A stretch of 45,237 nucleotides of DNA, from positions 1 through 45,237 of the IMG/VR virus record IMGVR_UViG_3300015200_000128. One strand, written 5' to 3'. Origin of the DNA: a virus (lineage: Duplodnaviria; Caudoviricetes). The notes beneath the pieces were generated by a model. The model ran no database searches. It was not told the origin of the DNA and saw only the letters and a list, made by a program, of their open reading frames with translations. Positions 1,502 to 44,210 of the stretch are shown one piece after another; position 1 is the stretch's first letter; each line of letters starts with the position of its first letter. The position numbers and the translations under genes are program-made.

Positions 1502-1631
1502 CGGACCCTAGCGGTCCGGTCAGGCTCTGACACAGGACGGGGTTGAAGTCCCCGGGCGACCGACAATCCCAAAGGGGACCGGGGCCGAGTGTCCACCGAC
1601 CACGCACGGTGTCAGCGCCTGACCGCACCGC
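1502..1631. ncRNA. Candidate structured RNA / inverted-repeat element
   Basis: 23-nt inverted repeat 1511-1533/1609-1631 (2 mismatches) enclosing nested hairpins including GGGG-UUGAAGU-CCCC. Confidence 0.45.
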
Positions 1632-1640
1632 TTGGTGCCA

Positions 1641-1663
1641 CTGTGGTACACTACGTGCCACAG
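1641..1663 (+). promoter_or_regulatory. Extended -10 promoter (TG-G-TACACT) inside an inverted repeat
   Basis: CTGTGGTAC-ACTAC-GTGCCACAG; second copy at 4613-4637. Confidence 0.6.
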
Positions 1664-1689
1664 CCATCCACCACAGGAGACAGCACAAC

Positions 1690-3105
1690 ATGGCGAACAT
1701 CCCCGCCCTGCCGTCAGGACACGAGGTCCTGCGCCGGGGCAAGGCAGTCAAGGGCCAGCCACTGGACTACGGTCCCGGCGGCTGCTCCATCATCGTCAAC
1801 AGCGACGTGGTCACGCTCAGCGATGAGCAGGGCATGCTCGCCACGACGCACGGCGCTGTGTACGCCGTGACCATGCGCCGGGTCAACCCGGGCAACATCG
1901 GCTACGTCAACCGCTTCATCGCGGACTGGGGCAAGGTCGAGCGCAACTGGCGCACCAAGCAGTACGTCGTCAAGTCCGGCATCACCGAGGCGCTCGCCTC
2001 GGACGTCGAGGCCACGACCCAGCTGCCGACGCCGACAGCACCCGTCGCACCACAGGTCATCGAGGCCGTGCCTGCCGAGGTTGAGCCCACGCCGGAACCG
2101 GTCGTGGTCGCAGCCGCGTCAGCGCCGGTCATCATCGACGCCCCGGTGCAGGACATCGGTGCGCTCATCCCGGCAGCTGCGCCTGTCCTCAAGGTCAAGC
2201 GCAAGACCATCGCCGGTCAGGACATGGTCGTCCTCGACAAGGTCCACATCCCGGCCCGCTTCTACGACCGCATGGAGCGGACGTGGAACCGCCGCCAGCG
2301 CGGCGAGCGCGGTGCCGTCGTCGTGACCGGGCCTTCGGGCACGGCCAAGACGCTGATGGTCCGCAAGTTTGCCGAGGCGATGGGCGTCCCGCTCATCATC
2401 CAGTCGGGCGGCAAGGTCCGCACGGCTGACGACTGGTTCGGTGGCCTCAAGCAGGACCGCGTGACCGGTCGCTTCAACTTCCAGTACAACCCGTTCGGGG
2501 CTGCGCTCAAGCAGAGCGTGCGCTGCATCGTCCTGCTGGACGAGGCGAACCGGGCGGAGACGCCGCAGGCCCTGAACGCGGTGCTGTCCCTCTTGGACGA
2601 CACCAAGTCGGTCTGGTCGCCTGATGCAGGCGAGTACTTCACGCTCCCCGACGGGATGCTCGTCGTGATGACGGCCAACGTCGGCGCGGAGTACGTCGGC
2701 ACCCAGCCGATGGACGCGGCTGTCACCCAGCGCTTCGGCACAGGCATCCGCCTGAGCTACCCGACACCGACCGTCGAGGTCGAGGTCCTCGTTGCCGTCA
2801 CCGGCATCGACAAGGCGCAGGCCGACACGCTCGTCCAGATGGCGAACCATCAGCGTCCGCTCAAGGACGACCTGATGCGCTTCCCGTCCGGCACCGGGGT
2901 ATCGCCCCGGATGCTGGTGGATATCGCGACCGACATCGTGGACGGGGCACCAGCCCGGGATGCGGTCGAGTCCACGTTCGAAGCGCAGTTTGGGGTCGAG
3001 GACTCCGAGGCGCTCGGCATCATCGTGGACACCTACTTCCCGGCAGCCGCGACCAGCACGCTGGACGTGGACGTCGATGCAATCAGCGAGGCCGACGACA
3101 TCTAG
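1690..3105 (+). CDS. MoxR/CbbQ/CobS-like AAA+ ATPase
   Basis: Walker A GPSGTAKT, Walker B VLLDEANR, sensor TAN, MDAAVTQRF arginine finger, SPRML lid; ATG 1690 follows the RBS motif. Confidence 0.9.
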   Translation: MANIPALPSGHEVLRRGKAVKGQPLDYGPGGCSIIVNSDVVTLSDEQGMLATTHGAVYAVTMRRVNPGNIGYVNRFIADWGKVERNWRTKQYVVKSGITEALASDVEATTQLPTPTAPVAPQVIEAVPAEVEPTPEPVVVAAASAPVIIDAPVQDIGALIPAAAPVLKVKRKTIAGQDMVVLDKVHIPARFYDRMERTWNRRQRGERGAVVVTGPSGTAKTLMVRKFAEAMGVPLIIQSGGKVRTADDWFGGLKQDRVTGRFNFQYNPFGAALKQSVRCIVLLDEANRAETPQALNAVLSLLDDTKSVWSPDAGEYFTLPDGMLVVMTANVGAEYVGTQPMDAAVTQRFGTGIRLSYPTPTVEVEVLVAVTGIDKAQADTLVQMANHQRPLKDDLMRFPSGTGVSPRMLVDIATDIVDGAPARDAVESTFEAQFGVEDSEALGIIVDTYFPAAATSTLDVDVDAISEADDI

Positions 3106-3142
3106 TCGTTGGCCTCACCAGCCAGCACAGGAGACAGCACCA

Positions 3143-4606
<1,464 letters not shown>

Positions 4607-4612
4607 TCCCAC

Positions 4613-4637
4613 GGCGTGGTACACTTCGTACCACGCC
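4613..4637 (+). promoter_or_regulatory. Extended -10 promoter inside a perfect 10-bp inverted repeat
   Basis: GGCGTGGTAC-ACTTC-GTACCACGCC, TACACT at 4620-4625. Confidence 0.6.
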
Positions 4638-4661
4638 ACCACTCAAGGAGACAGCACGCAC

Positions 4662-5543
4662 ATGGCACAAGCCGACAGGTACTATCACGAGCCGACGGTC
4701 CACGCAGCTGTGGTCGCCGCCGTTCGCACCGCCTTCGTGCGGTCCCGCACATCGCCCCGGGGTTGGGCGCACCGCCTCGATGAGGGTCGGCTCGACCCTC
4801 GCAACGTCTGGCGTCAGCAGGCCACTGCCCGGACCGACATCTTCCGCGACCGGCTCGCGCCGGGTGCGACCAAGGTCAACGTCCACATCCTCGTGGATGG
4901 GTCCGGCTCGATGACATCGGGCGACCAGCAGAACGAGGACGGCTCGGCTGCGACGCGCATCGAGAAGGCCATCGACATCACCGCCACCCTGACCGACGCC
5001 TTCCGTGGACAGCCCACGGTCAGGCTCAACGTCTGGATGCACAACACCGCCTCCCAGTTTGGCGAGGTCGCGATGTGGCCCATCATCACCAACAGTCAGG
5101 GTCGGCAGAACGTCGGCTTCATGGCTGGTGCGGTCGGTGGTGGCAACGGCGACGGCTACGCCATCAAGTGGGTCGGTGACAAGGTCCGCCGCTCGCACCG
5201 CAAGGGCGAGGTTGACCTGCTCATCGTCGTGTCGGATGGCCTGCCCTCGTGGCTGTCGGCCAACCGGGACCTCGGTCGGTACAACTACCAGACCGGGAGC
5301 TACGACGGTGTCGGCAACAACGGCGTGGCGCTGGTCTACAACGCAGTGCAGGAGCTGCGCGAGCGAGGCACCCGGGTGCTGGCAATCGCCATCACCCCCA
5401 ACAACAACTTCGCCGAGATGTACGGCGAGGCCGGGACCATCCCGTTCACCGGTGACTGGGCAGAGCTGGCGGTCAACATCGGCAAGGCACTGGGCGACAC
5501 GCTCAGTGCCGCCGCTCGTGACCCCAAGACGGCCAAGCGATGA
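4662..5543 (+). CDS. von Willebrand factor A domain protein (CobT C-terminal-like)
   Basis: EGRLDPR pre-vWA motif, MIDAS LVDGSGSM, GNGDGYAI, LIVVSDGLP. Confidence 0.9.
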   Translation: MAQADRYYHEPTVHAAVVAAVRTAFVRSRTSPRGWAHRLDEGRLDPRNVWRQQATARTDIFRDRLAPGATKVNVHILVDGSGSMTSGDQQNEDGSAATRIEKAIDITATLTDAFRGQPTVRLNVWMHNTASQFGEVAMWPIITNSQGRQNVGFMAGAVGGGNGDGYAIKWVGDKVRRSHRKGEVDLLIVVSDGLPSWLSANRDLGRYNYQTGSYDGVGNNGVALVYNAVQELRERGTRVLAIAITPNNNFAEMYGEAGTIPFTGDWAELAVNIGKALGDTLSAAARDPKTAKR

Positions 5544-5983: not shown

Positions 5984-6246
5984 GCGTCCTCATCGTTCCG
6001 GGCACGACGCTGGCGACCGCCGTCAGCATCGTGTCCAACGGCGGGGGCGTCATGGCCTCCGCCGCCAACCCGCTCATCGAAGTCGAGCCCGGGTCCATGG
6101 CCCGGGGTGTTGAGGTCACCCTTCACGTCGGCATCTACGACGTTGAGGTCACGCTCAGTGGAGCTGACAGGCTGGCGCTGGTCGAGCTGCTGCTCGGTCG
6201 TCGCCTGTCCGAGGCCGAGGACCGGCTGATGGACGGCAACCGATGA
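5980..6246 (+). CDS. Hypothetical protein, 88 aa
   Basis: Coupled start/stop overlaps on both sides. Confidence 0.7.
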   Translation: MSVLIVPGTTLATAVSIVSNGGGVMASAANPLIEVEPGSMARGVEVTLHVGIYDVEVTLSGADRLALVELLLGRRLSEAEDRLMDGNR

Positions 6247-6413
6247 GGCTGTCGATGCTGATGTACCTGCTGACCATCCTCAATGGCGGCTTGCTCGCAC
6301 TGAACGTGGGGTTCGTTGCTGCCACCGGCAACCCGGTCAGCGTTGGCGCAGCCACCTTTATCGGTGTCTGCCTCATCACTCAGCTCATCAGCCTAGCCAA
6401 GGCTACACGCTGA
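6243..6413 (+). CDS. Small two-TM membrane protein, 56 aa
   Basis: MRLSMLMYLLTILNGGLLALNVGFVAA...; coupled overlaps. Confidence 0.65.
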   Translation: MRLSMLMYLLTILNGGLLALNVGFVAATGNPVSVGAATFIGVCLITQLISLAKATR

Positions 6414-6865
6414 TGAGCGAGCGCAGTGAGTCGGACCCCCGAAAGGCGCTGCGAGAAGCGGCCTGTATCCATTGCGGCACCGTGCTTGAAGGCGAGGTCT
6501 TTTCGTGCTGTGCCGCCCTCGCCCAAGCCGCACCGTCTCCCGAAGTGGCGTACTGGCGCGACCTGTACGAGACGTGCCTTGCAACGACCACGAGACTCGC
6601 CCAAGCCGCACCGCCGAGCGGGCTGGACGTGGAGCCGGAGGCGCTGGAAGCCAAGGCCGGGAAGATGCTTGTGGAGGCGGCACGGCTGCGGCTTGCGCGG
6701 GGCGGTCCGAATGACGCGCACGAGGTCCGCCACCTGTACGCCGCCATCCAGTACGGCAACAGCGACGACGAGAACGACGGCTGCCGACTGGACACGCAAC
6801 ACTACCTCGACATCATCGACCCGAGAGCTGATACACTGGCACTTCCCGACACAGACAAGGAGTAG
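6413..6865 (+). CDS. Modular protein with DPRxALREA leader and two AQAAP repeats
   Basis: Shares DNA boxes with 11333-12058; TGATG coupling. Confidence 0.75.
   Translation: MSERSESDPRKALREAACIHCGTVLEGEVFSCCAALAQAAPSPEVAYWRDLYETCLATTTRLAQAAPPSGLDVEPEALEAKAGKMLVEAARLRLARGGPNDAHEVRHLYAAIQYGNSDDENDGCRLDTQHYLDIIDPRADTLALPDTDKE
6521..6619 (+). repeat. Two copies of the 21-bp AQAAPPP-type repeat
   Basis: GCCCAAGCCGCACCGTCTCCC 6521-6541; GCCCAAGCCGCACCGCCGAGC 6599-6619. Confidence 0.9.
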
Positions 6866-8055: not shown

Positions 8056-8270
8056 TGAACGAGAAGCCGGGGCATCCATCCAATCCGGCCAGTGCGAGTG
8101 CCGCTCGCATCACCAAGGTGTACAAGGGAACGCAGGTCCTTCGGGACATGGACTGCCCGACGTGCGCCGAAGCCATGGCAAACCCGGGCAAGGCCGTCCC
8201 TTACCATGACGCCAGCCCACGGTGCGAGTCCGGCAAACGTCCGCACTGCACCTGCGACACATGCTTCTAG
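8055..8270 (+). CDS. Small Cys/His-rich protein, 71 aa
   Basis: TGATG coupling with GAGGAG RBS; CPTC...H...C...HCTCDTCF. Confidence 0.75.
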
Positions 8271-8278
8271 GAGGCAAC

Positions 8279-9241
8279 ATGAGGAAAGCTTTCGTCTCAC
8301 TTGCAGTCATCGGGATGCTGCTCATCAGCGCCCCGGCTGCTCTTGCCGCCACTGGTACGTGGCAGGGCAACGGCTACCCGTCGGCTTCCTGCCAGCCCAG
8401 CACCACAGGCACCATGCTCTGGGTCTGGACCGGTGACAGCCCGACCAGCCTGACCATCAACGGCCACACCTACACCGGCTGGGAGCAGCAGGGTGGCGGT
8501 GCGTGGCACCTGACGCTGGACATCAGCGCCGACAACTACCCGCCGACCAGCGCGTCGGTCACCTACACCGGCAGCGCCGGGACGCTGACGCTCAGTGGCT
8601 GCAACGAGGGCGCGACGCCCACGCCAACGCCTACTCCGACGCCAACGCCTACTCCCACACCCACGCCGACGCCGACCCCCACGCCGACGCCGACTCCCAC
8701 CCCGACGCCGACGCCCACAGCGACGCCGACGCCGACCCCCATCGTGACACCAACCCCGACCCCGCCGGGAGCTACTCCGACACCGACACCGCCGGTCAGC
8801 ATCGGCACGTTCAGCATCGCGACCTGTCCTGCTGGCGTGACGGTTCCGGTCGGTCAGTCGGCGCTCAGCATCCGTGGCTCGGTGCTGCTCATCATCCTGC
8901 TCAAGGTCAGGGTGGACGGGCAGCTGGTGACACTCATCGACGTTCTCGGTAACGGCACCGTCGGCGAGGTATTCGTCACGCCGGGTGTCCACACCGTGAC
9001 CATCAGCAACGCGGCTGACACCGAAGTCCTGTTCAGCCGGACCATCGACTGCCCGGTCTGCCGCGATACCTTCGAAGGCACGCCGACCCCGGCTGCCCCC
9101 GGAACCCCCGCTCCCACCGCACCGCCGACCGACGTGGCCGGTGGGTCCAGCTCAGGCGGCTCGACTCCGATGCTGCCGCTGCTGCTCATCCTCGGTGTCA
9201 TCGGCACCGTGGCTGTCCTGCTTACTCCGAAGCGCCGCTAG
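8279..9241 (+). CDS. Secreted, surface-anchored protein with (PT)n linker and C-terminal PPTD-TM-basic tail
   Basis: Signal peptide [23 protein letters not shown]; PT repeats; APPTD...[20 protein letters not shown]. Confidence 0.85.
8614..8790 (+). repeat. Pro-Thr dipeptide coding repeat
   Basis: Degenerate 6-bp ACGCCG/ACNCCN units with synonymous variation. Confidence 0.9.
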
Positions 9242-9661: not shown

Positions 9662-9810
9662 GCGACGAGCTGCCCCACCGGGACCGCTGCACCTGCGTCA
9701 AGGATGGCGTGCGATGCAGCGCCGGTCGGGCATCGCCCAAGAGCCGGAACGACCGGTGTGAGTCCTGCTCGGCGGGCCTTCATCAAGGTCACCGGCAGGT
9801 GTCAGCGTGA
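9658..9810 (+). CDS. Small Cys-rich protein, 50 aa
   Basis: GTGA overlaps both sides; CTC...C...CESC. Confidence 0.6.
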   Translation: MSDELPHRDRCTCVKDGVRCSAGRASPKSRNDRCESCSAGLHQGHRQVSA

Positions 9811-10289
9811 ACCTGTTCGTGCCCGGTAACCCTGTCCCGCAGGGTTCCAAGCGGGCGCTGCTCCGCAAGGGCACGAACATCCCCATCGTCATCGACTCCA
9901 ACCGTCTCGGGCTGGCGACATGGCGCAGTCAGGTATGCGCCTATGCCATGGAGCAGAAGGCCAAGGACGGGGCGGACACCATCAGTGGACCCATCGCAGT
10001 GCGCCTTGAGTTTTGGCTCAAGCGTCCAGCCGAGCATTACCTGCCGGTCAACGGCAAGCGCACCGTCCCGCTCGTCCGGCAGGGCTCGCCCCTGTACGTG
10101 ACCCGGGCACCCGACCTCGACAAGTTGACCCGCGCCATCTTCGATGCGCTGACCGACGCTGACGTCTGGAACGACGACAGTCAGGTGGTCAAGGTGGTGG
10201 CAACCAAGCTGTACTGCGACCAGTACGACGAGCAAGGCCCACGACCCGGTGTCCTCATCGTGGTCCAGCCATGGAACAAGGTGGTCTGA
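9807..10289 (+). CDS. rusA: RusA-family Holliday junction resolvase
   Basis: PVPQGSK, PDLDKLTRAIFDALT, WNDDSQVV. Confidence 0.92.
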   Translation: MNLFVPGNPVPQGSKRALLRKGTNIPIVIDSNRLGLATWRSQVCAYAMEQKAKDGADTISGPIAVRLEFWLKRPAEHYLPVNGKRTVPLVRQGSPLYVTRAPDLDKLTRAIFDALTDADVWNDDSQVVKVVATKLYCDQYDEQGPRPGVLIVVQPWNKVV

Positions 10290-10525
10290 TGGCGACAGCT
10301 GAGATTGAAGAGCCCACCCTCCCGAACGACCCGGTCGTGGTGCTGGTTAGCCGGAAGGTACTGGCGGCGGCTGGTACCGACGAGCGCCTGAGCTGGCGTG
10401 CCTTGCTCGGGGTTGCTGTCACCGCTGGCTGCGTCGTGCTTGCCCCCACCCCGTTCAACATCATCGGTGCAGTGAGCTGCGCCCTCGTTGCAATCGAAGT
10501 CGCTCGCCTTGCATGGCGGAAGTAG
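10289..10525 (+). CDS. Two-TM membrane protein
   Basis: Two hydrophobic stretches; TGATG coupling. Confidence 0.7.
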   Translation: MATAEIEEPTLPNDPVVVLVSRKVLAAAGTDERLSWRALLGVAVTAGCVVLAPTPFNIIGAVSCALVAIEVARLAWRK

Positions 10526-10535
10526 GAGACAGCAG

Positions 10536-11336
10536 ATGCCCCTCGTTGAGATAGGTCCGCGCAATGCACGGACGGACCAGTCAGGCCTCCGGTTCTACAC
10601 ATGGCAGGGCGTCGAGTACCCCAGCGTCACGACCATCCGGCGCATGGCAGGGCTCAGCTTCCCGCTCCACCAGTGGGCCATCACGCAGGTCGTCAACCGC
10701 AGCGTGGACCACGTCAGTGACCTGAACCGGATGCTCACGTCGAACGACCCGCTCGTCACGACTGCGGCCAAGACGTGGCTGCGACAGGCAGCCGACGAGG
10801 AGCGTGACCGGGCAGCATCGCTGGGCAAGCGTGTCCACAAGGCGGTCGAGGACAACCTGCCGCTCGGTCAGGTGGACAAGGACGCGCTGCCCTACATCAA
10901 GCACTACAAGCACTGGCTTGCGACCACCGGGTTCAAGGTCCTGCGCTCCGAGGCACAGGTCTACAACCTGAGCAAGGGCTACGCCGGGTCGTTCGACCTG
11001 CTCGGTGAGGACAAGCGCAAGGACATCCACATCGTGGACCTGAAGTCGGGTAAGAACACGTACCCCGAGCATGCGCTTCAGGCCACGGCCTATTCGCTCG
11101 GCGAGTTTGTGGGCAGGGACGACGTCGTGGACGTTGAGGCCACCGACCTGCTGCGCCGGGTCAACAGCATCAGCCTGCTGCACCTGACCCCGACCGGCTG
11201 GCAGTGGCAGCACATCGACATCGACCGTTACATGGTCGTCGCCTTCAACGGGCTGCTTGCCTTCGCCAAGTGGGCCTACGCCCACCCGAAGATGGACGAG
11301 CTGCTGCTTGATGTCACCGAGGGCAAGGCGTCGTGA
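10536..11336 (+). CDS. PD-(D/E)xK exonuclease (RecB/lambda-exo/Cas4-like fold)
   Basis: YPSVTTI, GKRVH, E..VYN..YAGSFDL, IVDLKSG, ALQATAY; no Fe-S cysteines. Confidence 0.88.
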   Translation: MPLVEIGPRNARTDQSGLRFYTWQGVEYPSVTTIRRMAGLSFPLHQWAITQVVNRSVDHVSDLNRMLTSNDPLVTTAAKTWLRQAADEERDRAASLGKRVHKAVEDNLPLGQVDKDALPYIKHYKHWLATTGFKVLRSEAQVYNLSKGYAGSFDLLGEDKRKDIHIVDLKSGKNTYPEHALQATAYSLGEFVGRDDVVDVEATDLLRRVNSISLLHLTPTGWQWQHIDIDRYMVVAFNGLLAFAKWAYAHPKMDELLLDVTEGKAS

Positions 11337-12058
11337 AGTACACCGACTGGACCAGCGGTGAGCCCGTCGAGAAGGAGTGGCCGGACCCCCGAGAGGCGCT
11401 GCGAGAGGCGCTCGATGCGCTCGACATCATGGTCGAGCGGCAGACGCTTACCGGCGCTGTCCGTGTCCGTGAGATTGTCCGTGCCGCCCTCGCCCACGCC
11501 GCACCGCCTCCCGACGACGCATGGATGGAAGGCCGAAAGCAGGGTAAGGACCGCGAGCGAACGCTGGAGCAGGAGAACGACCTACTGCGTCGCCAACTCG
11601 CCCAAGCCGCACCGCCTCCCGAGACGGACATCGAGTGGGCCGCGCTCATCGCTGACCTGAACGCCCAATGTTCAGACCGACCGGGAACCACGGGGCCGCG
11701 CCTGAGTCACGCCACCATCGTCACCCGGTACTTCGCCCAAGCCGCACCGCCTCCCCGCCCGCCGACAGAGGCCGAGGAATACGAGGCGCTGTACGAACAC
11801 CCGATGCCCCAAGCCGCACCGCCTCCCGATGTGGGGTTTCCGATGGGTGCGGCCCATGTCGTCGGCACGAAGATTGTCGCCCAAGCCGCACCGCCTCCCC
11901 ACATCTGCGGCTGTCAGCACGACGGCCCTTGTCGTGAGAGTGAGTGCGGGCATCACGAATGGCAGGACCGGAAGCGTACCGCCCAAGCCGCACTGCCTCC
12001 CTATCGTCTCTCGGAGTGTCCGAACTGCGGCGCGTTGCTCCGGGTCAAGCAGTCGTGA
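11333..12058 (+). CDS. Cassette-like modular protein: AQAAPPP linkers joining unrelated peptides
   Basis: GTGA overlaps at both ends; frame kept through all repeats. Confidence 0.8.
   Translation: MKYTDWTSGEPVEKEWPDPREALREALDALDIMVERQTLTGAVRVREIVRAALAHAAPPPDDAWMEGRKQGKDRERTLEQENDLLRRQLAQAAPPPETDIEWAALIADLNAQCSDRPGTTGPRLSHATIVTRYFAQAAPPPRPPTEAEEYEALYEHPMPQAAPPPDVGFPMGAAHVVGTKIVAQAAPPPHICGCQHDGPCRESECGHHEWQDRKRTAQAALPPYRLSECPNCGALLRVKQS
11492..12001 (+). repeat. Array of six 21-bp direct repeats with unique in-frame spacers
   Basis: Repeats start at 11492, 11600, 11735, 11807, 11879, 11981; spacers 87, 114, 51, 51, 81 nt. Confidence 0.97.
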
Positions 12059-12423
12059 ACCGCAGCATCCAGCCGTTTCATCAGCAGCATGGCATCACGG
12101 CGATGGAGTGGAAGGCGCTCATCGCCCGGGCTGAAGTGGGCACGATGGCTGGTGGTGCCAAGAAGCTGGGCATCAGCCTTCAGACCTTCAAGAACCACAT
12201 CAGCAACGCGACCAAGCGACTCGGTGCGGCCAACGTCTGGGAGACGTACCGGATACTGGGCTGGCTGGTCCTGCCCTTTGAGGATGGCACGCCAGCAACA
12301 GGCAAGCCCCACCCCGACCAGCCCCACGAGTTTCAGGTGCGCTGCTTCCGCTGCGGTGAGAACGGCTACGTCAACGTCGCCCTCGTCACCGACACGGAAC
12401 GCCTCAAGGTGGTGCCGATATGA
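12055..12423 (+). CDS. LuxR-like HTH protein with C-terminal CxxC
   Basis: AKKLGISLQTFKNHISNATKRLGA; CFRC. Confidence 0.75.
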   Translation: MNRSIQPFHQQHGITAMEWKALIARAEVGTMAGGAKKLGISLQTFKNHISNATKRLGAANVWETYRILGWLVLPFEDGTPATGKPHPDQPHEFQVRCFRCGENGYVNVALVTDTERLKVVPI

Positions 12424-28162: not shown

Positions 28163-31100
28163 CTACTCGCCACTGATAGCACTCACCACTTCTTCGTAGC
28201 TGCCACCCAATCTCGCCTGAAGTTCCTCGACAGAACCTTCTGGGAACTCAGGCTGCTCGGGCTGCGGCACGGGCTGTTGCGGGACGGTGGTATGAAGCGG
28301 CGGCAACTCGTTGTTGCGGACCGGTGGCACGAAGTCGGGGGTGTTCGCCAGCTCGTCCTCGGACTTGGGCTGGAGCCCACCGAGGGTCTTGGCGACGAGG
28401 CCGGGGTAGCCGAGCAGCGTCTCTGCTCCCTGCGATGGACCAGAGGTGTAGCCGATGGTGTCACTGACGATACGAGCAGCATCGACGTCGGTGACGAATG
28501 CCTGCCACGCGCTGTAGTCCTCGGGCTGCTCGCCGTCGATGTCCTTCTGGAGGTTCGTCGCCACGCCCTCGACGTAGCGGCGCAGCCAGAGCGGACTGTT
28601 GACCGGCAGGTCCCACGGCACACCGGGCACGAGCATGCCGATAGCCCGGAAGGCGTCCTCGTTCTCGGCCATGAACTGCTTCAGCTCGGGGTCGTTCTCC
28701 ATCTGGTTCATGGTGTGCTGGTACATGGTGTTGACCATGTCGGCGGCGACCCACGGGGTCTTCAGGCCGAACGGGCGGAGCGCGAGGAACTCCACCATCT
28801 CGGGGAGAATCTTGCCCCACATGTAACTGAGCGGATAGAGCCCGAAGTACGGGTGGTTGAGGCTGCGTTCCAGCCACGAGCGGTCGGACTTGAAGTGGAT
28901 GAGGTCCTTGCTCACACGGTCGGAACGGCGGTGACCGGCATACATCCAGTTGAGCGCGGCCTGTTCGTTGACGTCGTAGTTGTAGGCGTTCTGGGTCGGC
29001 GGGGTCCGGTCGATGGTGTCGAACAGGTCCTTCACCTCGGGATGCAGCTCGACTTTCTGCATCTTGCCCCTCGGCTTGACCGGGGCTGTGGGTGCAACCT
29101 CGGCAAACGGGCCGATGTCGGTCGGTGTGGCACCAAGTGCGGCTTCGTCCAGCCCAAGGTCTTCGAAGTAGTTCTCATGCTTGCTGCGCAGCGAGTCGAG
29201 CAGCTCATCCCACGTATCGGAACGGGCGTCCTTGAACTCCTCGGCGCTCTCGTAGTCCTGCCGCTCCATGGTCTGGTACTCATCCAGCAGGTTCAGCTCG
29301 TCGGTGACATCAACGCCCTGCTGCTCCAGCTTGACAAGGTCACCCTCCATGCGCGGCCCGTTGCGGGCACCGGCGTTGTCCCACTTCTCATGCACAGCCC
29401 GGATAGCATCGCGCTGCACACCGGCCTCGACCACATCGGGAGCCGGACCTTCAGCCAGCTTGGCCGCACGCTCGGCCTCGTGCGCCGTACGCCGCCCCTC
29501 GTACGCCGCCATCTCGGCCTGATGCCGGGTGACCTCGGCGTCGAAGACGGTCGGGTCGGCCTCGACCCTGACCTTGCGGTCCTTCAGGTACTTGCTGTAA
29601 TGCTCGGCAAGTGGGACCAAAGCAGGGTTACGCATGGCATCGGGACCCTGCCGCATGTACTCGATGAGCTGGTCAGCCAGCCACTCCTGCTCGTCCACCG
29701 TGAGGGTGGCCTGCCGTGACTTGGCCCCGATGGTCGGAGCGGTGCCCTCGCGTCCGGCATAGATGGCCTTGGCCCTGCGGATGGCGCTCGGCTGGAGGGT
29801 GCGGTTGACGTAGTCGTGCGCGTACTCGTGCGCGAGCGTGTCCGCTGCCTTGCGCTTGGGCGAGACATATATCTGGGCGCGGCGCGGCTTCTTGCCGCCC
29901 TGACTCAGGGCTGTTCCGGCGTCCTCGATGGCTCCACGAGGGGCACCCCCGGGGGTTCGCTGGAAGAGGCGTCGTCCTCGGGCAGAGTCAGCGGCAGCGA
30001 GTCGGGCTGCTCGGCGACCACGGGGGCTTCGCTGGAGATATCCGGCGGGGTCGGTGAGGTCAAACCCTGCTGCTCCGGCGTTGGCTCTTCCGGCTCGGTG
30101 GGCGGCTGTTTCCCGGGCTGCCAAGGATTGGTAGGCGTCTTCGTAGACCATGCGCCCCCACTGCCGACCTTCACGGTCCAGTTCTCTTCGGACATCGGGC
30201 TGGTCCTCCAGATGCTGTGCGTATCCCTCGCCGTTGGGGTTGGCTGTCCAGTCGTTCTCCAGCTCCACCACGTCGGCGTAGCCGCGCTTGATGTCATTGG
30301 ACCACGCCGGGTCGAACTTCGGGCTGTACACCCCGTTGCCGGTGGTGAAGTCGTAGGCCCCACCCGGGCGCTGGAGGTAGAGCTGGACGCCCTCGACCTC
30401 GTTCCAGTCATCGACCAGCAGGTTGACGTCGAGGTCGATGGTCCCACGGTCGGGGTCACGGAACACGCCGAGGTAGGCGTTCTGCCGTGACAGGTCGCCG
30501 CGATGGGCCTCGATGTAGGCATCGACCGCCGCATGGAAGTCGGCCTCGTTGACGTCGAGCGGCAGGCTGGTCGTGTCGCTGATGCCGGTGGCGTACGGGC
30601 CACCACCGCGCTTCTCGCCGTAGGCCTTGGGTCGCTTGCCGTTGTGCAGGTCAACGGTCAGTCCGCCCCAGCCATCGTCCACCTCGGCCTGCACGCTGTC
30701 CCACAGGTCACGACCCAGCACAGCTCGCTTGCTGTCACCGTAGTTGATGGGCTTGGCGTCGGTCAGGGACTGCTGGATGCGGCGCTGACCGAGGTCCTTG
30801 ATGCCCTGCTCCCGGGCACCGGCTGCCATCGGCTCGTCCGGGTTGACGTAGCGCCCACGCGCATAGCCCTCGGGCGAGCTGACGGTCGAGTACAGGTCAC
30901 GCAGCTGGACGTCGTTCATCCGGGCCGTGAAGTCGGTCAGGTTCTCGCCCGCGTTTGCGACCACCCGGACGACATACGTGCCGTCGGCCCGCCGAGTCAG
31001 GTCCGCGTCGCCGAAGAACTCCGGCGCATCCTCGGCCAGCGCTCGCAGCGCACCCTGCATCTCGTCCGGTGCGATGGAACTGGGGAACGACACTTCGACC

Positions 31101-34100
31101 ATGTGTCGCACGCCGTTGGACTTGGTCGGCTTGGCGAGGGTTGCCCGGGTTGCCCGCACGCGAGCCTGTCCCGAGGTGGTACCAAGCACCGCGAGGTGAC
31201 GGCGGATGCTGTCCGGCGAAGACATGACTTCGAAGTTCGTGGCGCTGCCAGCTCGCCCGTCCACGATGACGACGCTCTGGTTGGACGAGATGGTCCGGGT
31301 GCCAGCAAGCCGAGAAGCCTCGTCGTTGAACAGGTTCGCCGTCCTACCGGCGATGGCCTGAGCCGTGCGCTCCGAAACCTCTGGGTAGAGGACATGCATC
31401 GGAGCCGTAGCCGACGGAGTGACCTCGACTTGCGACACCCGGGTCGAGTAGACGCTGTCGTAGAAGGCAGTGCGCGGGTCACCCGTCTCGTCGCCGAAGA
31501 CGGTCTTCCCCTTGAACCAGCCCAGTGCCTGTGCCTCGGCAGGCACCCAGTCGGTGCGACCAAGGAAGCGCGTCTGGTTCAGGTAGTCGGTGGCGTCGTT
31601 GTAGAACTCGATGATGGCGTCGTACTCGACATCGTTCGGGTTGCCACCGACCTGCTTGGCGTCGATGTCGAAGCTCTGCCCGTTCTTCTTGTCGGTGAAC
31701 CGGAAGCTGTCCTTCAGCTTCCCGTTCTCTCCTCGGACCCGAATCTTCCTGATGGCGTAGTCGTCGCCGTAGGCGTACTGGAGGTGCTTGAGCATCTTGG
31801 CGTCGATGTAGCCGACATCTCGCTTGGCCCAGATGTCGCCCGCCACAGCGCCCCATGTCCCCTTGGGGCCACGTACGGGTACCGTCCGCCCGTCCACGCC
31901 GATAAGGGAGTCCACGAAGTCGATGAGCTTCTGCCCCATCCCCGCCTGTGAGACATAGCCTTCCTCCAAGAAGTGCTTGAGCGCCGAGCCGTTCAGACCC
32001 GCTGTCTTCTGGAGGACCTTTGCATCGGCGGGCAGGTCCTGCCCCCGGCGCATGGTTTCGACCACCCGGAGCATGAACTTCATGCCATCGACCGGGGACG
32101 TGTTGAGCTGGGTGATACCAAACGCCATCAGCAGGTGGGTCGCCTCCTCCTGCTGGTTCTCACTGAGAGCCATGAACCCACGGCGCATGTCGCTGTACCA
32201 GCTGGCATGCTCGGCCAGCTGCTCGTCGGACATGTTGTTCTGCAACTCTTCGACCCACTCTTGTGGCGTCTTGCGCCCACCGAGTCGGTGCGTAATCTTG
32301 CCGTCCGCATTGCGGGCGATGAGCCGTCCGTCCTCGACACCCAAGATGAGCCCGGGCGTACCGACCTTCGGGTCGGCAGCACGCTGGGCCCGGGCCTGCT
32401 GGAAGGTGCGGCCCTTCGCCTGCGCGGGCGTCAGGTCCTTCACCGCCGTATCCCGGCGCAGCGCCGTGTCGTGCCGCCGGATGGCAGCCGACTCGGCGTC
32501 ACCGATGCCGATGTCGGAGGGGCGCAGGTTGGCCGGGACGTAGCCGAACTCATCGGCGAACGCTCCGCGCACCGCCGTGCCCCCGGCTGCTCCCTCGTGG
32601 CGGATGATGGTGACCGGGATGTTGACGCCCTTGAGCGCGTCCGGCTTCTCGCCTGCCAGCTGGATGAGCGCCGCCACCCGGTGGTTGCCCTCGTCCACCT
32701 TGACCGTCCGGTCGGCCTTGCCATAGGTCAGCTGGATGGGCTCGCGAATGCCGTTCGACTTGATGTCGGCAGCCAGCGTGTTCAGCTCAGCCGGTGTCAT
32801 CCGCAGGGCGTTCCCGGGCTGGATGTCGGCGATGAGGTTCATCGGCACCAGCTCGGTGTAGGGAGCCAGCGCGTGACCCTCCCACTCCAGCTCGGCGACA
32901 GCCGGGGGCAGCCCGATGTCGGGCATCTTGGGCTGGCCTATCTGGGCCATCTTGCCGCCGACGACGACCGCCTCGTGGTCGAGCGGGACGACCGACATGC
33001 CCCGTGCCTCGGCAGCATCGACGGTCAGCTGGAACAAGGTCGTCGGCTTCCACTGGCCGGTCGCCTCGTCCAGCGACTTGGGCGCACCGTGGTACTTGTC
33101 GGCCAGCGACTCGATGAGTGGCAGACCCTCGTCCTCTGCCACGATGCGGTGGTAATCCATGATGCGGGCGGCTTCCTCGGGGCCACCAATCTCGGCCAGC
33201 GTGGCCTCAAACTCCGCCTCGGTCGGGTACTCCATCCGCCACTTGGTCTTCTCGATGTACTGCTCGTCGGCACCGAGAGCGCGAAGCCGCTCCTCCATCC
33301 AGCCGGGAGTGACGACCGTGTCCTTTGGGTCGAGGTAGCGGGCCCGGAGCTGGGCGAAGGTCGTCCCCTCGTCCAGCATCTCGCCGCTCAGCCCCTCCAT
33401 CACGACCTTCTCCGACCAGCGGGCACGCTTGCCGAGGAAGCTCGGGCGGAAGAACTCAGCCGGGTTGTTGTGGGCCATGACGGCGCTGAACGCAGCGTTC
33501 GGGTCGTTGCGGATGAGCATGTCGTTGAACCAACGAACCGCCACCTCGCCCTCGTCGGTGACACCAAGGGAGCTGTAGTAAGCCCGCATCGCGTTCCACT
33601 GGACGGGTGACTCGCGCTGGAGCATCCGCTTGATGTTGTCGCCTTGGTCCCGGCGGAAGGCGATGAGCTGGCCCCGGGTCTTGACCCGGGCCACGCCGTT
33701 GTCGTTGAGCAGGGCGGTGAGCGCCCTGCCCTCGGACGACGACGCGGCTCGTGACGCAGCCGCTGACCCGTACCGGACCACGTCGGTGTGTTCAACCATG
33801 TCGGTCGCGTAGCGCGAGTCGGACGCGAAGGCATCCATCATCACGGCGGTCTGATAGTCGATGTCGTGGGCTCGCTGTATCTCGGCCCGCTTACCCTCCC
33901 AGAACGAGGCCAGCTTGCTGCCGCGCTCAGCCCCGCGTGCCTCGCGCAGGCCCGCCCGCACGCCCGTCAGCGGACCGGTGAACTGCCCCGGCGAGGCCAT
34001 GCCCCGGGCGATGAGCAGGACGGGTGTCTCGATGCCCTCCTGAAACTGGAAGAACGGGTTCCACTTGAAGCGGACATTCGGGTAGTACCTCTCGGCCAGC

Positions 34101-36853
34101 GTACCCAGCCGGGTGGTCCCAAGCCGGTTCGCCTCGACAGCCTTGAGCCGCCCCGTGAACTTCTGGCTGAGCCCGACCTTGCCGAGCGAGCCCTCGTGCG
34201 CGAAGAAGATGGCGTTCTGAATCTGCTTGGTCGTCATCTTGTCCTTGAGGACCTGCGGCAGCTGCGCCCGCTGGGCTGCCGAGTACAGCTCATTGCTGTA
34301 CAGGCCACGCGCCGAGCTGACCTCGTGGATGGCAGCCTCCTGCCGGATGAGGTGCATGACTTGGTCGCTCTGCTCACGGCTCAGGCCGACGTTCTCGGCC
34401 ATACGCTGGGCGAAGCGCCGGTTCTGCTCAATGACAATCTGCGAGCCCGAGATGCTGTTGAGCAGGCGACCGGTCAGCTGCGAGACGACACCAGCTGGCT
34501 TGATGTCACCCATGTTCATGTCCACGCCACGGACGTAGTCCATGAACGGGTCAATGGACGTGATGCGACCGGCCTTGTTCTTGCCGACGGCGAACACGTC
34601 CTCACCGCGCAGCCCCAGCTGCATCGAGTCGCCGAACTTCTGCTGGAAGGCACGCATCGCGGGCGTGAGCGAGGCCGGGTCGATGGCATCGGGCAGGTTC
34701 TCGGCCAGCCCGTCGAGCAGCTCGTCGGCCCGGGTCAGCAGCTCGTCGTCAGACAGGGCCTGCGACAGGTTCCACTCCAGCACGTCGTACTGACCGATGG
34801 CTCGCCGCACCTCGCCGATGTCGCGGGCCCCGATGGCCTTGCGCAGTTCGAACGCCCGGGACTTGGTCAGCTGGGTGGGACCAAGGAAGATGATGCGGTC
34901 CACGAACTCGGGGGTCAGCCCCATCGCCGCGACCTCGGCCTTGCTGAGCGTCCGGGCATTGAGCAGGCCGTCGGCCATGTGACCGTACTGCATGAACCGG
35001 ACCACAGCCAGCTGGTCGGGCGACATCTTGGCCGTGACACCGAGGGCCACCTCGTCGGACAGGCCGTACATCTTGCTGATGAGCCCACCGACGAACTTGC
35101 GCTCACGGGCGACAGCCGTCTCCATCGTCTCGCCCGCCTCGGGCACGATGAGGTCCTTGACCTTGTCCATCTTGTGGCGGACCAGACTCTCGACGTCCCT
35201 GCCGTGCCGGGACAGCATGTCCTGCCCCATGTTGGTGAGAGCAACCGGGTCGGCGGCGTCCTCCACGCCGATGCCCAGCCGCGTATGCAGCCGAGCCACT
35301 GACTCGCCGCCTACCTGCTGGGCCACGTTGGCGAAGGCAGTGCCGAGGTCGCCCGAGATGCGGTCCATGCTGACGCCCGCCTTCTCCAGCGCCGTCATCA
35401 CCGGGGCGATGTTGTGCTTGCCCAGCGAGTTGGTCGCACCGTTGATGATGTGGAGCGAGACGGCCTTGTTGGCCGCACGTCCCATCCGGTCCGAGCCGAA
35501 CAAGCTCAGCGGGTCGAGGACGTTCTCGGCCTTCTGCATCCAGTCGAGGACGTGCTGGTTGGCAACGAACGGGCGCTTCAGGATGCCGACCGACTCCATG
35601 CTGGCCTTGACCGCCGGGTCCTTCGCCATCAGCCCGTAGCGCATCAGGTTTCGGTCGGTCGCCTCAACGCCCTTGGGCAGCATCGAGATGAGGCGCTCCT
35701 GCTCACGAGCTGCACCTTGGATGGCGAGTTCCTTGGCGGCGTCGGTGCCTGCCCGCACCAGCCCCTTCTCGACACCGTCCTTGAGCGCCGCCTCACCAGC
35801 ATCGGCCAGCAACCGAGTGAGGCCCTGCGCCGCGCCCTTAGCCGACATCTTGACGCCACCACCCACCCCGAAGGACAACAGATTGGTCGGGTCAGTGAAC
35901 GTCTCAAGGCCCAAGCTCGCCCCGGCGGCGATGAGGTTTGCACTCACCTCGCCGAACAGCTGGAACGGGGTGCCCTTGCCCAGTTCGCGCAGCCCGGTGA
36001 TAGGCGCGGACTGGCCGATAGGCTCGGTCACGCCATAACCCGCCAAGGTCAGCTCATCGAGCGCCGCGTCGCGCTTGAGCTTGCCGGACCTGACGTCCTC
36101 CCTGATGCGAATGAGGTCGGGGTTGTTCTCCAGCTGCAAGTCGCTCTTGTTGACGAGGTCCTTGATGCGCTGGTCACCGCCCAGCCCACCGAGGTGACGC
36201 TGCACGCCCTGCGATGCGACGTTCATCCCGGTGAACACGTACTGAGCCAGCCCGCCGAGGTTATCGTCGGACGGAGTCAAGGCCATGCCCCCGAGGAGCT
36301 TCGACATCTGGCCCGTCTCGGTCGCCCGCATACGAGCGAACTCGGTCATCATCCGAGTGTTCTGCATCCAGTCGGTGTTGGCGTCACCCGCCCCCTGCTG
36401 TTGGGCCCACGTCGTGTATTCCTGCTCATGGCCCTTGATGAGTTCCATCGACATGGCCTTCTGCTGCTGCTGCATCAGCGAGAAGCCGGTACCGATGAAC
36501 GGGATGGCCTCGGCGAACGGCAGCTCGCCCAACTTGCCCAGCGCACCAGCTGCCATGCCGAGCAAACCGCCCTTGTCTTCCCCGCCTTGGAAAGCCCCGG
36601 GCTTCGCCAGCAGCGCTTCGGACTTCTGAGTGACGGGCCGACCGAACAGGTTGACCGACGACTTGCCCACACCGGCATAGGGGCGGCGCGTGTCGAGGTC
36701 ACCGCCCGTCGAGGCTGACGGCGGTGGTGCCATGAACGACTTGGCCGAGGTGGCGTTGCGCGAGTAGTAGCGGCTCGCGCTGAAGCCTGACTTCGTCGGA
36801 GCTGAGCCACCTCCGAGCGCTCCCGTGCGCTGAAGAATCTCGTGCAGGCCCAT
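28163..36853 (-). CDS. Giant polyvalent / internal virion protein, 2896 aa
   Basis: ParB-like motif (IKSNGIREPI...EGNHRVAAL), HEYAH metallopeptidase motif, WY...K..F...DIW...QA..W motif series; FTDPTNLL N-terminal pattern. Confidence 0.8.
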   Translation of the reverse strand: MGLHEILQRTGALGGGSAPTKSGFSASRYYSRNATSAKSFMAPPPSASTGGDLDTRRPYAGVGKSSVNLFGRPVTQKSEALLAKPGAFQGGEDKGGLLGMAAGALGKLGELPFAEAIPFIGTGFSLMQQQQKAMSMELIKGHEQEYTTWAQQQGAGDANTDWMQNTRMMTEFARMRATETGQMSKLLGGMALTPSDDNLGGLAQYVFTGMNVASQGVQRHLGGLGGDQRIKDLVNKSDLQLENNPDLIRIREDVRSGKLKRDAALDELTLAGYGVTEPIGQSAPITGLRELGKGTPFQLFGEVSANLIAAGASLGLETFTDPTNLLSFGVGGGVKMSAKGAAQGLTRLLADAGEAALKDGVEKGLVRAGTDAAKELAIQGAAREQERLISMLPKGVEATDRNLMRYGLMAKDPAVKASMESVGILKRPFVANQHVLDWMQKAENVLDPLSLFGSDRMGRAANKAVSLHIINGATNSLGKHNIAPVMTALEKAGVSMDRISGDLGTAFANVAQQVGGESVARLHTRLGIGVEDAADPVALTNMGQDMLSRHGRDVESLVRHKMDKVKDLIVPEAGETMETAVARERKFVGGLISKMYGLSDEVALGVTAKMSPDQLAVVRFMQYGHMADGLLNARTLSKAEVAAMGLTPEFVDRIIFLGPTQLTKSRAFELRKAIGARDIGEVRRAIGQYDVLEWNLSQALSDDELLTRADELLDGLAENLPDAIDPASLTPAMRAFQQKFGDSMQLGLRGEDVFAVGKNKAGRITSIDPFMDYVRGVDMNMGDIKPAGVVSQLTGRLLNSISGSQIVIEQNRRFAQRMAENVGLSREQSDQVMHLIRQEAAIHEVSSARGLYSNELYSAAQRAQLPQVLKDKMTTKQIQNAIFFAHEGSLGKVGLSQKFTGRLKAVEANRLGTTRLGTLAERYYPNVRFKWNPFFQFQEGIETPVLLIARGMASPGQFTGPLTGVRAGLREARGAERGSKLASFWEGKRAEIQRAHDIDYQTAVMMDAFASDSRYATDMVEHTDVVRYGSAAASRAASSSEGRALTALLNDNGVARVKTRGQLIAFRRDQGDNIKRMLQRESPVQWNAMRAYYSSLGVTDEGEVAVRWFNDMLIRNDPNAAFSAVMAHNNPAEFFRPSFLGKRARWSEKVVMEGLSGEMLDEGTTFAQLRARYLDPKDTVVTPGWMEERLRALGADEQYIEKTKWRMEYPTEAEFEATLAEIGGPEEAARIMDYHRIVAEDEGLPLIESLADKYHGAPKSLDEATGQWKPTTLFQLTVDAAEARGMSVVPLDHEAVVVGGKMAQIGQPKMPDIGLPPAVAELEWEGHALAPYTELVPMNLIADIQPGNALRMTPAELNTLAADIKSNGIREPIQLTYGKADRTVKVDEGNHRVAALIQLAGEKPDALKGVNIPVTIIRHEGAAGGTAVRGAFADEFGYVPANLRPSDIGIGDAESAAIRRHDTALRRDTAVKDLTPAQAKGRTFQQARAQRAADPKVGTPGLILGVEDGRLIARNADGKITHRLGGRKTPQEWVEELQNNMSDEQLAEHASWYSDMRRGFMALSENQQEEATHLLMAFGITQLNTSPVDGMKFMLRVVETMRRGQDLPADAKVLQKTAGLNGSALKHFLEEGYVSQAGMGQKLIDFVDSLIGVDGRTVPVRGPKGTWGAVAGDIWAKRDVGYIDAKMLKHLQYAYGDDYAIRKIRVRGENGKLKDSFRFTDKKNGQSFDIDAKQVGGNPNDVEYDAIIEFYNDATDYLNQTRFLGRTDWVPAEAQALGWFKGKTVFGDETGDPRTAFYDSVYSTRVSQVEVTPSATAPMHVLYPEVSERTAQAIAGRTANLFNDEASRLAGTRTISSNQSVVIVDGRAGSATNFEVMSSPDSIRRHLAVLGTTSGQARVRATRATLAKPTKSNGVRHMVEVSFPSSIAPDEMQGALRALAEDAPEFFGDADLTRRADGTYVVRVVANAGENLTDFTARMNDVQLRDLYSTVSSPEGYARGRYVNPDEPMAAGAREQGIKDLGQRRIQQSLTDAKPINYGDSKRAVLGRDLWDSVQAEVDDGWGGLTVDLHNGKRPKAYGEKRGGGPYATGISDTTSLPLDVNEADFHAAVDAYIEAHRGDLSRQNAYLGVFRDPDRGTIDLDVNLLVDDWNEVEGVQLYLQRPGGAYDFTTGNGVYSPKFDPAWSNDIKRGYADVVELENDWTANPNGEGYAQHLEDQPDVRRELDREGRQWGRMVYEDAYQSLAARETAAHRAGRANAGAAGFDLTDPAGYLQRSPRGRRAARLAAADSARGRRLFQRTPGGAPRGAIEDAGTALSQGGKKPRRAQIYVSPKRKAADTLAHEYAHDYVNRTLQPSAIRRAKAIYAGREGTAPTIGAKSRQATLTVDEQEWLADQLIEYMRQGPDAMRNPALVPLAEHYSKYLKDRKVRVEADPTVFDAEVTRHQAEMAAYEGRRTAHEAERAAKLAEGPAPDVVEAGVQRDAIRAVHEKWDNAGARNGPRMEGDLVKLEQQGVDVTDELNLLDEYQTMERQDYESAEEFKDARSDTWDELLDSLRSKHENYFEDLGLDEAALGATPTDIGPFAEVAPTAPVKPRGKMQKVELHPEVKDLFDTIDRTPPTQNAYNYDVNEQAALNWMYAGHRRSDRVSKDLIHFKSDRSWLERSLNHPYFGLYPLSYMWGKILPEMVEFLALRPFGLKTPWVAADMVNTMYQHTMNQMENDPELKQFMAENEDAFRAIGMLVPGVPWDLPVNSPLWLRRYVEGVATNLQKDIDGEQPEDYSAWQAFVTDVDAARIVSDTIGYTSGPSQGAETLLGYPGLVAKTLGGLQPKSEDELANTPDFVPPVRNNELPPLHTTVPQQPVPQPEQPEFPEGSVEELQARLGGSYEEVVSAISGE

Positions 36854-43718: not shown

Positions 43719-44210
43719 ATGCCGCTGGTCGAAGTCCAGCCCCGGGCGGATATCAAAGCCGCCACCTACGAAGCTGTCGTCTCCTCGGTGGAGAAGGACA
43801 TCATCGTCCCCAAGACCGGACGCAATGCCGGTCAGAACGTGCCCATCCTGCGATGGAACTTCGTCATCGACGGCGTCGATGACCGCATCGAGTCCATCAC
43901 CGGGCGCGACCCCAGCTCCGAGAAGTCCAACCTGTTCAAGTACTTCGTCGCCCTGCTCGGCTCCGACAAGGCCAAGTGGATGTCGGCGGAGATGGAGGAC
44001 CTCGTCGGGCTCAAGTGCCTCGTCACCATCAGCGTCACTGACGACGGCTGGCCGCGTGTCGATGGCGTGTCGGGGATGCCGGTCCGCCGTGGCCCCGCCC
44101 CCGCGCCGACCCCCGCCGGGGAGCCGGTCAACCCGCAGCCCGTCCAGACCGCCTTCTCCGAGGGCAAGCTGACCGACGAGGAGGCCGTCCCCGACGACCT
44201 GCCCTTCTAG
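43719..44210 (+). CDS. Putative phage ssDNA-binding protein (OB-fold-like)
   Basis: Acidic DDLPF tail; EDLVGLKCLVTI; GAGG RBS. Confidence 0.75.
   Translation: MPLVEVQPRADIKAATYEAVVSSVEKDIIVPKTGRNAGQNVPILRWNFVIDGVDDRIESITGRDPSSEKSNLFKYFVALLGSDKAKWMSAEMEDLVGLKCLVTISVTDDGWPRVDGVSGMPVRRGPAPAPTPAGEPVNPQPVQTAFSEGKLTDEEAVPDDLPF

Follow-up and report, generated by a model that had tools for sequence, protein, structure and literature searches.

In-frame repeats at the edges of exchanged modules in a soil phage gene family: a putative many-slot form of linker-guided mosaicism

The DNA considered here (the window) is a whole virus record of 45,237 bases from a soil phage, estimated to be 97% complete. 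One of its genes, at 11333–12058 and called gene 1 below, contains six in-frame copies of a 21-nucleotide (nt) repeat (box B, read as AQAAPPP) behind a start box (box A); the pieces between boxes are called modules, and the genes built in this way the cassette family. Among known repeat systems, arrays of clustered regularly interspaced short palindromic repeats (CRISPR) have near-invariant direct repeats, unique non-coding spacers of uniform length (about 25–45 nt), Cas1 and acquisition at the leader end. Integrons have a tyrosine integrase (IntI) and palindromic attC sites around whole genes. Diversity-generating retroelements have a reverse transcriptase and a template repeat, and shufflons an invertase and inverted sites.

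In phages, the linker or boundary model of Botstein and Campbell holds that short conserved DNA at module edges targets homologous recombination, so that incoming modules end up in a functional setting (PMC2839356, PMC3233612; here as below, published work is compared for those parts of its text that were accessible). Whether mosaic boundaries reflect targeted linker recombination or random joins followed by selection is an old open question (PMC3233612). In the cassette genes too, short conserved DNA is found at the edges of exchanged modules, but the linkers of the model are intergenic, whereas boxes A and B lie in one frame, are codon-locked and number up to six per gene; the end box of relatives reaches into the stop/start junction, so that the intragenic and intergenic kinds both occur. 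PeSL cassettes of T4-type phages (PMC2839356) also consist of a repeated element with gain, loss and replacement of DNA of unknown function by homologous recombination without a dedicated integrase. However, PeSLs are intergenic promoter/terminator elements moving whole genes, whereas the boxes are translated, are free of stem-loops and would move gene pieces.

The Ead/Ea22 early genes of lambdoid phages (PF13935; PMC10834534, PMC7093339) resemble gene 1 in being mosaic accessory genes beside an exonuclease, with a conserved end, and their products have a long central coiled coil and a pro-lysogenic effect. As described in the accessible text, they swap a few large domains and show no repeated identical joint, whereas many slots and well over 100 modules are found here. 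The T-even adhesin gp38 (PMC3157838) combines hypervariable segments with glycine-rich motifs of fixed number and order, as a virion structural core; in contrast, cassette proteins have 0–6 B boxes, their modules change slot, and the gene is a non-structural one outside the tail region. Polyvalent proteins (PMC5512222) share the variable order of unrelated parts, but their domains are large, recognisable and mostly enzymatic, whereas cassette modules are tiny, nearly all unnamed and joined by DNA-identical joints.

We found no description of the cassette family, or of an in-frame array of identical repeats in a phage early gene, in the literature within reach, which excluded most subscription journals and supplements. 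As far as these searches reach, what is new is the in-frame many-slot array, its identical joints, the very small modules and the existence of several interchangeable box dialects. A first-pass annotation, made by a model from the sequence alone, had not recognised the array as a described system; this stands for the family, which is unnamed, and not for the principle, since short-linker recombination and mosaic Ea22-type early genes are in print. Judging from sequence comparison, the cassette family is an in-frame, many-slot form of linker-guided phage mosaicism.

The array and the identity of its boxes

Gene 1 is an open reading frame (ORF) of 241 amino acids (aa), in which box B starts at 11492, 11600, 11735, 11807, 11879 and 11981, with 1, 0, 0, 1, 0 and 1 mismatches to the 21-mer consensus. 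The spacers measure 87, 114, 51, 51 and 81 nt; none contains a stop and every length is divisible by 3 (p = 0.004 for the five together). Positions, mismatches and spacer properties were recomputed and agree with the first-pass annotation. With up to 3 mismatches allowed, the window matches the 21-mer at 8 places, whereas 100 shuffles averaged 0.02 matches. Two of the 8 places (6521 and 6599) lie in a second ORF, gene 2 (6413–6865), and had been overlooked, as had the 18-nt start box (DPREAL) at 11384 and 6434. The parts of both genes are as follows (P numbers denote family proteins, L numbers loci and X numbers sequencing runs).

11333..12058, + strand: cassette gene 1, 241 aa
11333..11383, + strand: leader module, 17 aa; heads other modules in 9 other family proteins
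11384..11401, + strand: start box A (18 nt, DPREAL); identical in L059 and L062
11402..11491, + strand: module M0, 30 aa, predicted helices
11492..11512, + strand: box B copy 1, Q to H change
11513..11599, + strand: spacer S1, 29 aa, predicted long helix
11600..11620, + strand: box B copy 2, consensus; shares 32 identical nt with L062 2998–3029
11621..11734, + strand: spacer S2, 38 aa
11735..11755, + strand: box B copy 3, consensus
11756..11806, + strand: spacer S3, 17 aa
11807..11827, + strand: box B copy 4, A to P change
11828..11878, + strand: spacer S4, 17 aa; 10/14 aa identical in P0089, between AEAAP-type boxes
11879..11899, + strand: box B copy 5, consensus; rejoining point of the X8 allele
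11900..11980, + strand: spacer S5, 27 aa, Cys/His-rich; present in the X8 allele after other modules
11981..12001, + strand: box B copy 6, P to L change
12002..12058, + strand: terminal module, 18 aa, CxxC
6413..6865, + strand: cassette gene 2, 150 aa; not seen in the first-pass annotation
6434..6451, + strand: start box A of gene 2, 1 mismatch
6521..6541, + strand: box B copy in gene 2, followed by a 19-aa module found in P0070 (18/19 aa)
6599..6633, + strand: box B subtype AQAAPPSGLDV; L062 shares 35 identical nt, and the gene 1 allele of X8 matches over 36 nt

The 726-base array is not an assembly artefact, because a contig of run X3 spans 11179–12177 with 0 differences to the window. Close variants of the window allele were also found, namely P0073, with one residue change, and a contig of run X6 covering 11712–11977, with 9 differing letters in 266 nt. 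The GC content of the spacers at codon positions 1, 2 and 3 (0.70/0.46/0.76) follows the pattern of translated genes. Gene 1 overlaps both neighbours by GTGA, its own GTG start with the stop of the upstream exonuclease gene, and its own stop with the start of the next gene. When the five spacers and the pieces before and after them were compared with each other (21 pairs, against codon shuffles), the lowest p value was 0.012 and none was significant after 21 tests. The spacers are not diverged duplicates of one another, a case that the first-pass annotation had named as fatal to its reading; because they are unrelated, plain tandem duplication is excluded.

Comparison of the boxes supports their conservation at the DNA level, as had been proposed from gene 1 alone. 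The gene 1 copies differ by three amino acid-changing substitutions and by no synonymous one, and they keep codons that are rare in the window (CAA 7.5%, GCA 10.2% and CCT 7.1% of their own codon families, in a reference of 10,909 codons from 16 window genes). Silent departures affected 2 of 77 codons in 12 copies of AQAAPPP, both in the SGLDV subtype, and in the other boxes 1/59 (AEAAPL), 4/54 (LRSPDT), 0/30 (DPALRA) and 1/53 (ALASET). In six orthologous gene pairs, silent differences at codons for identical residues amounted to 10/75, 25/66, 24/83, 37/114, 81/209 and 36/82. Synonymous change thus concerned 0–7% of box codons versus 13–44% in orthologous genes. Six of the loci (L059, L062, L202, L203, L205 and L212) had been retrieved through an exact match to a box, and in each of them one copy is biased towards identity. 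This selection did not reach the A and C boxes in L202, L203 and L205, nor any box in L200, L201 or X8. Two shared modules contained 4 silent and 2 coding changes in 36 codons (a small sample), and shared modules therefore appear to drift while their own boxes stay fixed.

Exchange of modules between relatives

The most direct comparison came from run X8, which belongs to a different study. A 1,668-nt contig of this run is 99.6% identical to the window upstream of the array (5 differences in 1,133 nt, window 10270–11402) and departs from it at the end of start box A (11402). Between its box matches it has 77, 103, 95 and 69 other letters, that is, four other modules, and it rejoins the window at 11879–11993 (box 5, S5 and the start of box 6) with 1 difference. 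The first box of this allele is the subtype of window gene 2, matched over 36 nt, and the spacings of its boxes (99, 123, 123, 93 and 102) are all multiples of 3. A second X8 contig differs from the window before 12052, and its terminal module looks to have been replaced too.

Similarly, locus L059 carries the orthologue of gene 2, next to an upstream flanking gene with 88% aa identity. The two orthologues have start box, box B and end block in common, the pieces in between are unrelated, and the edges fall at boxes. Locus L201, found through its exonuclease (85% identical), has a cassette gene at the same position with boxes that are related yet distinct (AAEAAPL three times, RSPDTET twice), and L200 represents a third dialect, with four copies of ALASETTAPAP.

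A profile of ten proteins detected 70 proteins at E <= 1, 51 of them below 1e-3 (8 of the 70 were query members). The number of B boxes in these was 0 (1 protein), 1 (43), 2 (21), 3 (3), 4 (1) and 6 (1); further long arrays are those of P0117 and P0137. With a 30-sequence profile, 137 protein clusters were obtained at E <= 0.001 among 1.84 billion representatives, nearly all of cassette build; the queries themselves are counted here, as is at least one false match (P0119). Cutting 73 proteins at their boxes yielded 220 modules of at least 12 aa, 66 of which fell into 26 shared clusters, and shared modules were often in another slot, with other neighbours or behind another box type. Four pieces of gene 1 recur with other neighbours: the leader (in P0022, P0036, P0046, P0051, P0065, P0074, P0095, P0096 and P0127), M0, S4 and S5. 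In P0071, M0 is identical at 29/30 aa and is accompanied by a different leader, linker and second module; in P0091 it occupies the last slot (16/24 aa identical). Modules also cross between dialects (P0012 and L062, P0048 and P0055, L212 and P0025, the last pair connecting the third dialect to the second), and P0015 and P0055 are hybrids with boxes of two dialects.

Gain, loss and replacement of modules at boxes between relatives, with the frame kept, is well supported by these alignments. The first-pass annotation had taken the repeat to be a site for module gain and loss; X8, L059 and the shared modules all agree with this, and the spacer sets of relatives differ rather than being identical.

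Whole genes may behave in the same way. A small hydrophobic gene at 6243–6413 (56 aa) is missing in L059, and the position of the gap is exactly that of the stop/start overlap; whole genes, too, would therefore come and go at junctions. The end box RSPDTETAGEAG (L201 748–873, L203 and L205) has a purine-rich finish, with a stop that overlaps or just precedes the next start, and it may act both as a ribosome-binding site and as a linker at the gene junction.

Searches with the repeat itself yielded little. The exact 21-mer had no match in viral contigs, and in metagenome contigs it was present at 5 loci: the window, L059, L062 and two chance matches. A 16-mer matched 57 viral loci, of which 8 belong to another mosaic family, none belongs to the cassette family, and the remainder look like chance matches; a two-copy pattern matched 47 viral loci, with no cassette-family member, and the degenerate 21-mer 89 genome loci, each with a single copy and apparently by chance. 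Single-protein searches with the 241-aa product returned, among proteins of similar length, only itself, together with the shorter P0071. None of 5 candidates from a viral six-peptide scan was confirmed. In cultured phages, P0006 had no match and gene 1 only 8 short ones (E 0.2–0.7), and the ESM Atlas contained nothing at 0.9 or above for the gene 1 product. No RNA data set was listed as carrying the sequence. In the contigs of seven runs, none of the joints listed deletes a module from between two boxes; rare variants are lost from contigs, which makes this result uninformative on excision. In a search bearing on the host, 3 of the 401 genomes in the class of genome G001 had exonuclease homologues with 45–48% identity (9 of 401 at E <= 1e-8; no control class). 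No cassette gene was seen at 11 exonuclease loci of that class, and 2 profile matches resemble an unrelated host gene.

The other mosaic family met in these searches (L003, L029, L030, L031, L036, L044, L045 and L054; start NEAASVAQG, linker AQAAPPAAPVQ) has its modules in new combinations, and its linker matches 16–17 nt of the box core, by which the loci were selected. No module-level similarity to the cassette family was found.

How the boxes may act

We propose, with a probability of roughly three in four, that the boxes are short-homology crossover points at which homology-driven exchange shuffles in-frame modules. Around pairs of boxes, identity stops at staggered places (0–11 nt on the 5' side, 0–18 nt on the 3' side) and dialects trade modules; homology-driven exchange therefore fits better than a fixed crossover site. 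Identical stretches between boxes are 21–36 nt long, close to the minimal pairing lengths of Red-beta (23–27 bp) and RecA (31–34 bp) (PMC3945230). Whatever the dialect, the nine bases in front of a box are often GCCGCCCTC (AAL). A module of P0063 is homologous to the Cys-containing C-terminal part of the window gene at 12055–12423, which has a weak LuxR-type helix-turn-helix (14/35 aa, pairwise E 2e-11), and this fits recruitment of modules from ordinary genes. Since gene 1 overlaps both neighbours by GTGA, joins that keep the frame would be favoured. Two genes lie upstream of gene 1:

10488..11336, + strand: PD-(D/E)XK exonuclease (PHROG 298, E 4e-29), directly upstream of gene 1, a candidate recombination function
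9807..10289, + strand: RusA Holliday-junction resolvase (PF05866, E 4e-17)

In the proposed mechanism, co-infecting phages or gene copies would swap, add and drop modules at boxes. Crossovers would be made by ordinary homology-driven recombination, through host RecA or an unrecognised phage annealing protein and with no site-specific enzyme, and the neighbouring exonuclease and RusA might assist. Repeated exchange among copies would keep up the identity of the boxes, and unequal crossover between them could produce longer arrays such as the six-box gene 1. New modules would be acquired only seldom and through microhomology, such as that of the shared GCCGCCCTC at the 5' end of boxes, and changes of slot could arise likewise. 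The frame would be kept in part through translational coupling of gene 1 to both neighbours.

Several points weigh against this proposal. The mechanism is drawn from comparisons and not from an observed recombination event. At 21 nt, the core is shorter than either minimal pairing length (PMC3945230), and no annealase of the RecT, ERF or Rad52 type was found in the genome, Sak4 not having been searched for. The X8 allele is a single contig with a depth of 5.4, and its frame is judged from box spacings, not from its letters. Finally, S1, S2, S3 and the terminal module had no homologue among the family proteins compared.

The CRISPR- or integron-like layout suggested by the first-pass annotation did not survive comparison. 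Gene 1 shares near-invariant direct repeats and unique spacers with CRISPR arrays, but its spacers are 51–114 nt long, multiples of 3, and set inside a 241-aa ORF with coding-type GC content. No Cas1 (PF01867) was found in the 97%-complete phage genome, a host Cas1 acting in trans being outside this search, and acquisition shows no polarity, because the X8 allele shares the late S5 while P0071 shares the first module M0. Unlike integrons, the genome has no tyrosine recombinase (PF00589, E <= 1), the box has no stable fold and no hairpin (z –0.82 to 1.66, 10 folds) and no Rfam match, and the cassettes are pieces of genes. The locus differs from diversity-generating retroelements and shufflons by the lack, in the same genome, of a reverse transcriptase (PF00078), a serine recombinase (PF00239) or a tyrosine recombinase, and by the + strand orientation of all 8 box B copies of the window.

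These results make it improbable that a dedicated protein for site-specific capture or recombination, integron- or CRISPR-like, acts on the box, whether it comes from a phage gene not yet recognised as such or from the host. The staggered ends of homology, the exchange of modules among at least three box dialects and the position of cassette genes away from the exonuclease (gene 2, L062 and L200) also speak against such an enzyme; on its side are the codon-locking of boxes across divergent phages, the need of new modules for some way of getting box flanks, the many window ORFs without a family, and the PD-(D/E)XK nuclease directly upstream of gene 1 and in L201. We give no better chance to the extended version in which phage capture machinery would write gene fragments of other phages in frame at the boxes, as a coding analogue of the integron that builds libraries of anti-host mini-proteins. 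Least probable, and largely refuted, is that the repeat serves purely as a linker in the protein (or as a site of protease or RNA cleavage), recently duplicated and identical as DNA through young age. In favour of this, AQAAPPP has the composition usual for Ala/Pro linkers, and the unrelated mosaic family has a similar linker with the same 17-nt core (8 of 57 viral matches), but each of the three changes among the gene 1 copies is amino acid-changing, boxes are identical between phages that differ at 13–44% of synonymous sites, spacers are unrelated and exchange points fall on boxes.

Possible roles of the product and other genes of the window

Neither the gene 1 nor the gene 2 product belongs to a Pfam or PHROG family. 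In the Pfam scan of 143 family proteins, Ead_Ea22 was the sole family above cut-off among true members: two proteins, P0054 and P0136, carry the Ead/Ea22 domain (PF13935) as a module. In the PHROGs scan, 70 of 71 family proteins had no match. A single-sequence AlphaFold model of the gene 1 product contained helices at 19–35, 40–55, 61–91, 99–114 and 124–137 (mean pLDDT 56.9, pTM 0.25); its C-terminal half is of low confidence and the model is too poor for a fold search, so that it counts as weak evidence. The nearest ESM Atlas cluster with a Pfam family was Lar (score 0.76, 22% of members), which is a lead only. The CxxC motif is present in 22 of 70 family proteins. As a best guess, held with less than even confidence, the product would be an Ea22-type accessory protein of the early region, built like beads on a string and offering small pieces, helical or zinc-binding, to partners from the host or the phage; against this, the products of genes 1 and 2 themselves lack an Ea22 domain.

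It is also conceivable, if rather doubtful, that the modules are mostly passengers, with selection acting on the open frame (through coupling to the next gene) and boxes persisting as self-perpetuating recombination sites. Modules of 17–38 aa are below the size of most folded domains, the single-sequence model reached a pTM of only 0.25 (again weak evidence), three of the five spacers have no homologue, gene 1 overlaps both neighbours, and the gene at 6243–6413 and whole modules are missing in relatives. Passengers would not be expected to carry an intact Ea22 domain or the CxxC motif in 22 of 70 proteins, or to show coding-type GC content (0.70/0.46/0.76); the 4 synonymous versus 2 amino acid-changing codons in 36 of the two shared modules point in the same direction, in a small sample.

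The first-pass annotation had suggested an anti-defence library, in which each module blocks one host defence protein and shuffling follows host defences. This is unlikely as matters stand, and it is compatible with homology-driven exchange. The gene is hypervariable, occupies an early-region site beside recombination genes, and has small CxxC modules that resemble Lar-type proteins, but no anti-defence family was named in 143 family proteins by Pfam or in 71 by PHROGs. Enzymatic domains like those of polyvalent proteins, in the accessible description of the latter (PMC5512222), were not found, and the sole named module, Ead/Ea22, has a tested role that is pro-lysogenic (PMC10834534, PMC7093339).

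The genome carries capsid, portal, tail, primase, RusA and exonuclease genes. Several of its other genes deserve mention. The gene at 43719–44210 has no family and ends in an acidic DDLPF tail, from which we take its product to be, as is likely, a single-strand DNA-binding protein; it resembles a gene located between exonuclease and cassette gene in L203/L205. The protein encoded at 8222–9241 combines a signal-like N terminus with a long Thr-Pro repeat and, at its C terminus, PPTD followed by a hydrophobic tail, which is unusual in a phage; a similar gene is present in L200, and the tail may correspond to a sorting signal of Chloroflexota surface proteins. At 1543–5543, genes for a MoxR/CbbQ-type AAA ATPase, a very acidic Asp/Glu-repeat region and a vWA/CobT-like protein follow in a row. 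An ORF of 2,896 aa (28163–36853), with no Pfam or PHROG match, lies between the capsid and portal genes, beside a 920-aa ORF without a family; both are possibly injected virion proteins, which is a guess.

With respect to the mosaic boundaries of phages, the principle of linker-guided exchange is already in print, and the cassette family offers an unusually clean case of it, with 99.6% identity upstream, replacement of modules from box to box, codon-locked boxes and well over 100 alleles. Combinatorial shuffling of modules would also explain why such proteins remain unannotated singletons. For the phages, exchange at boxes would be a route to mint new small proteins combinatorially.

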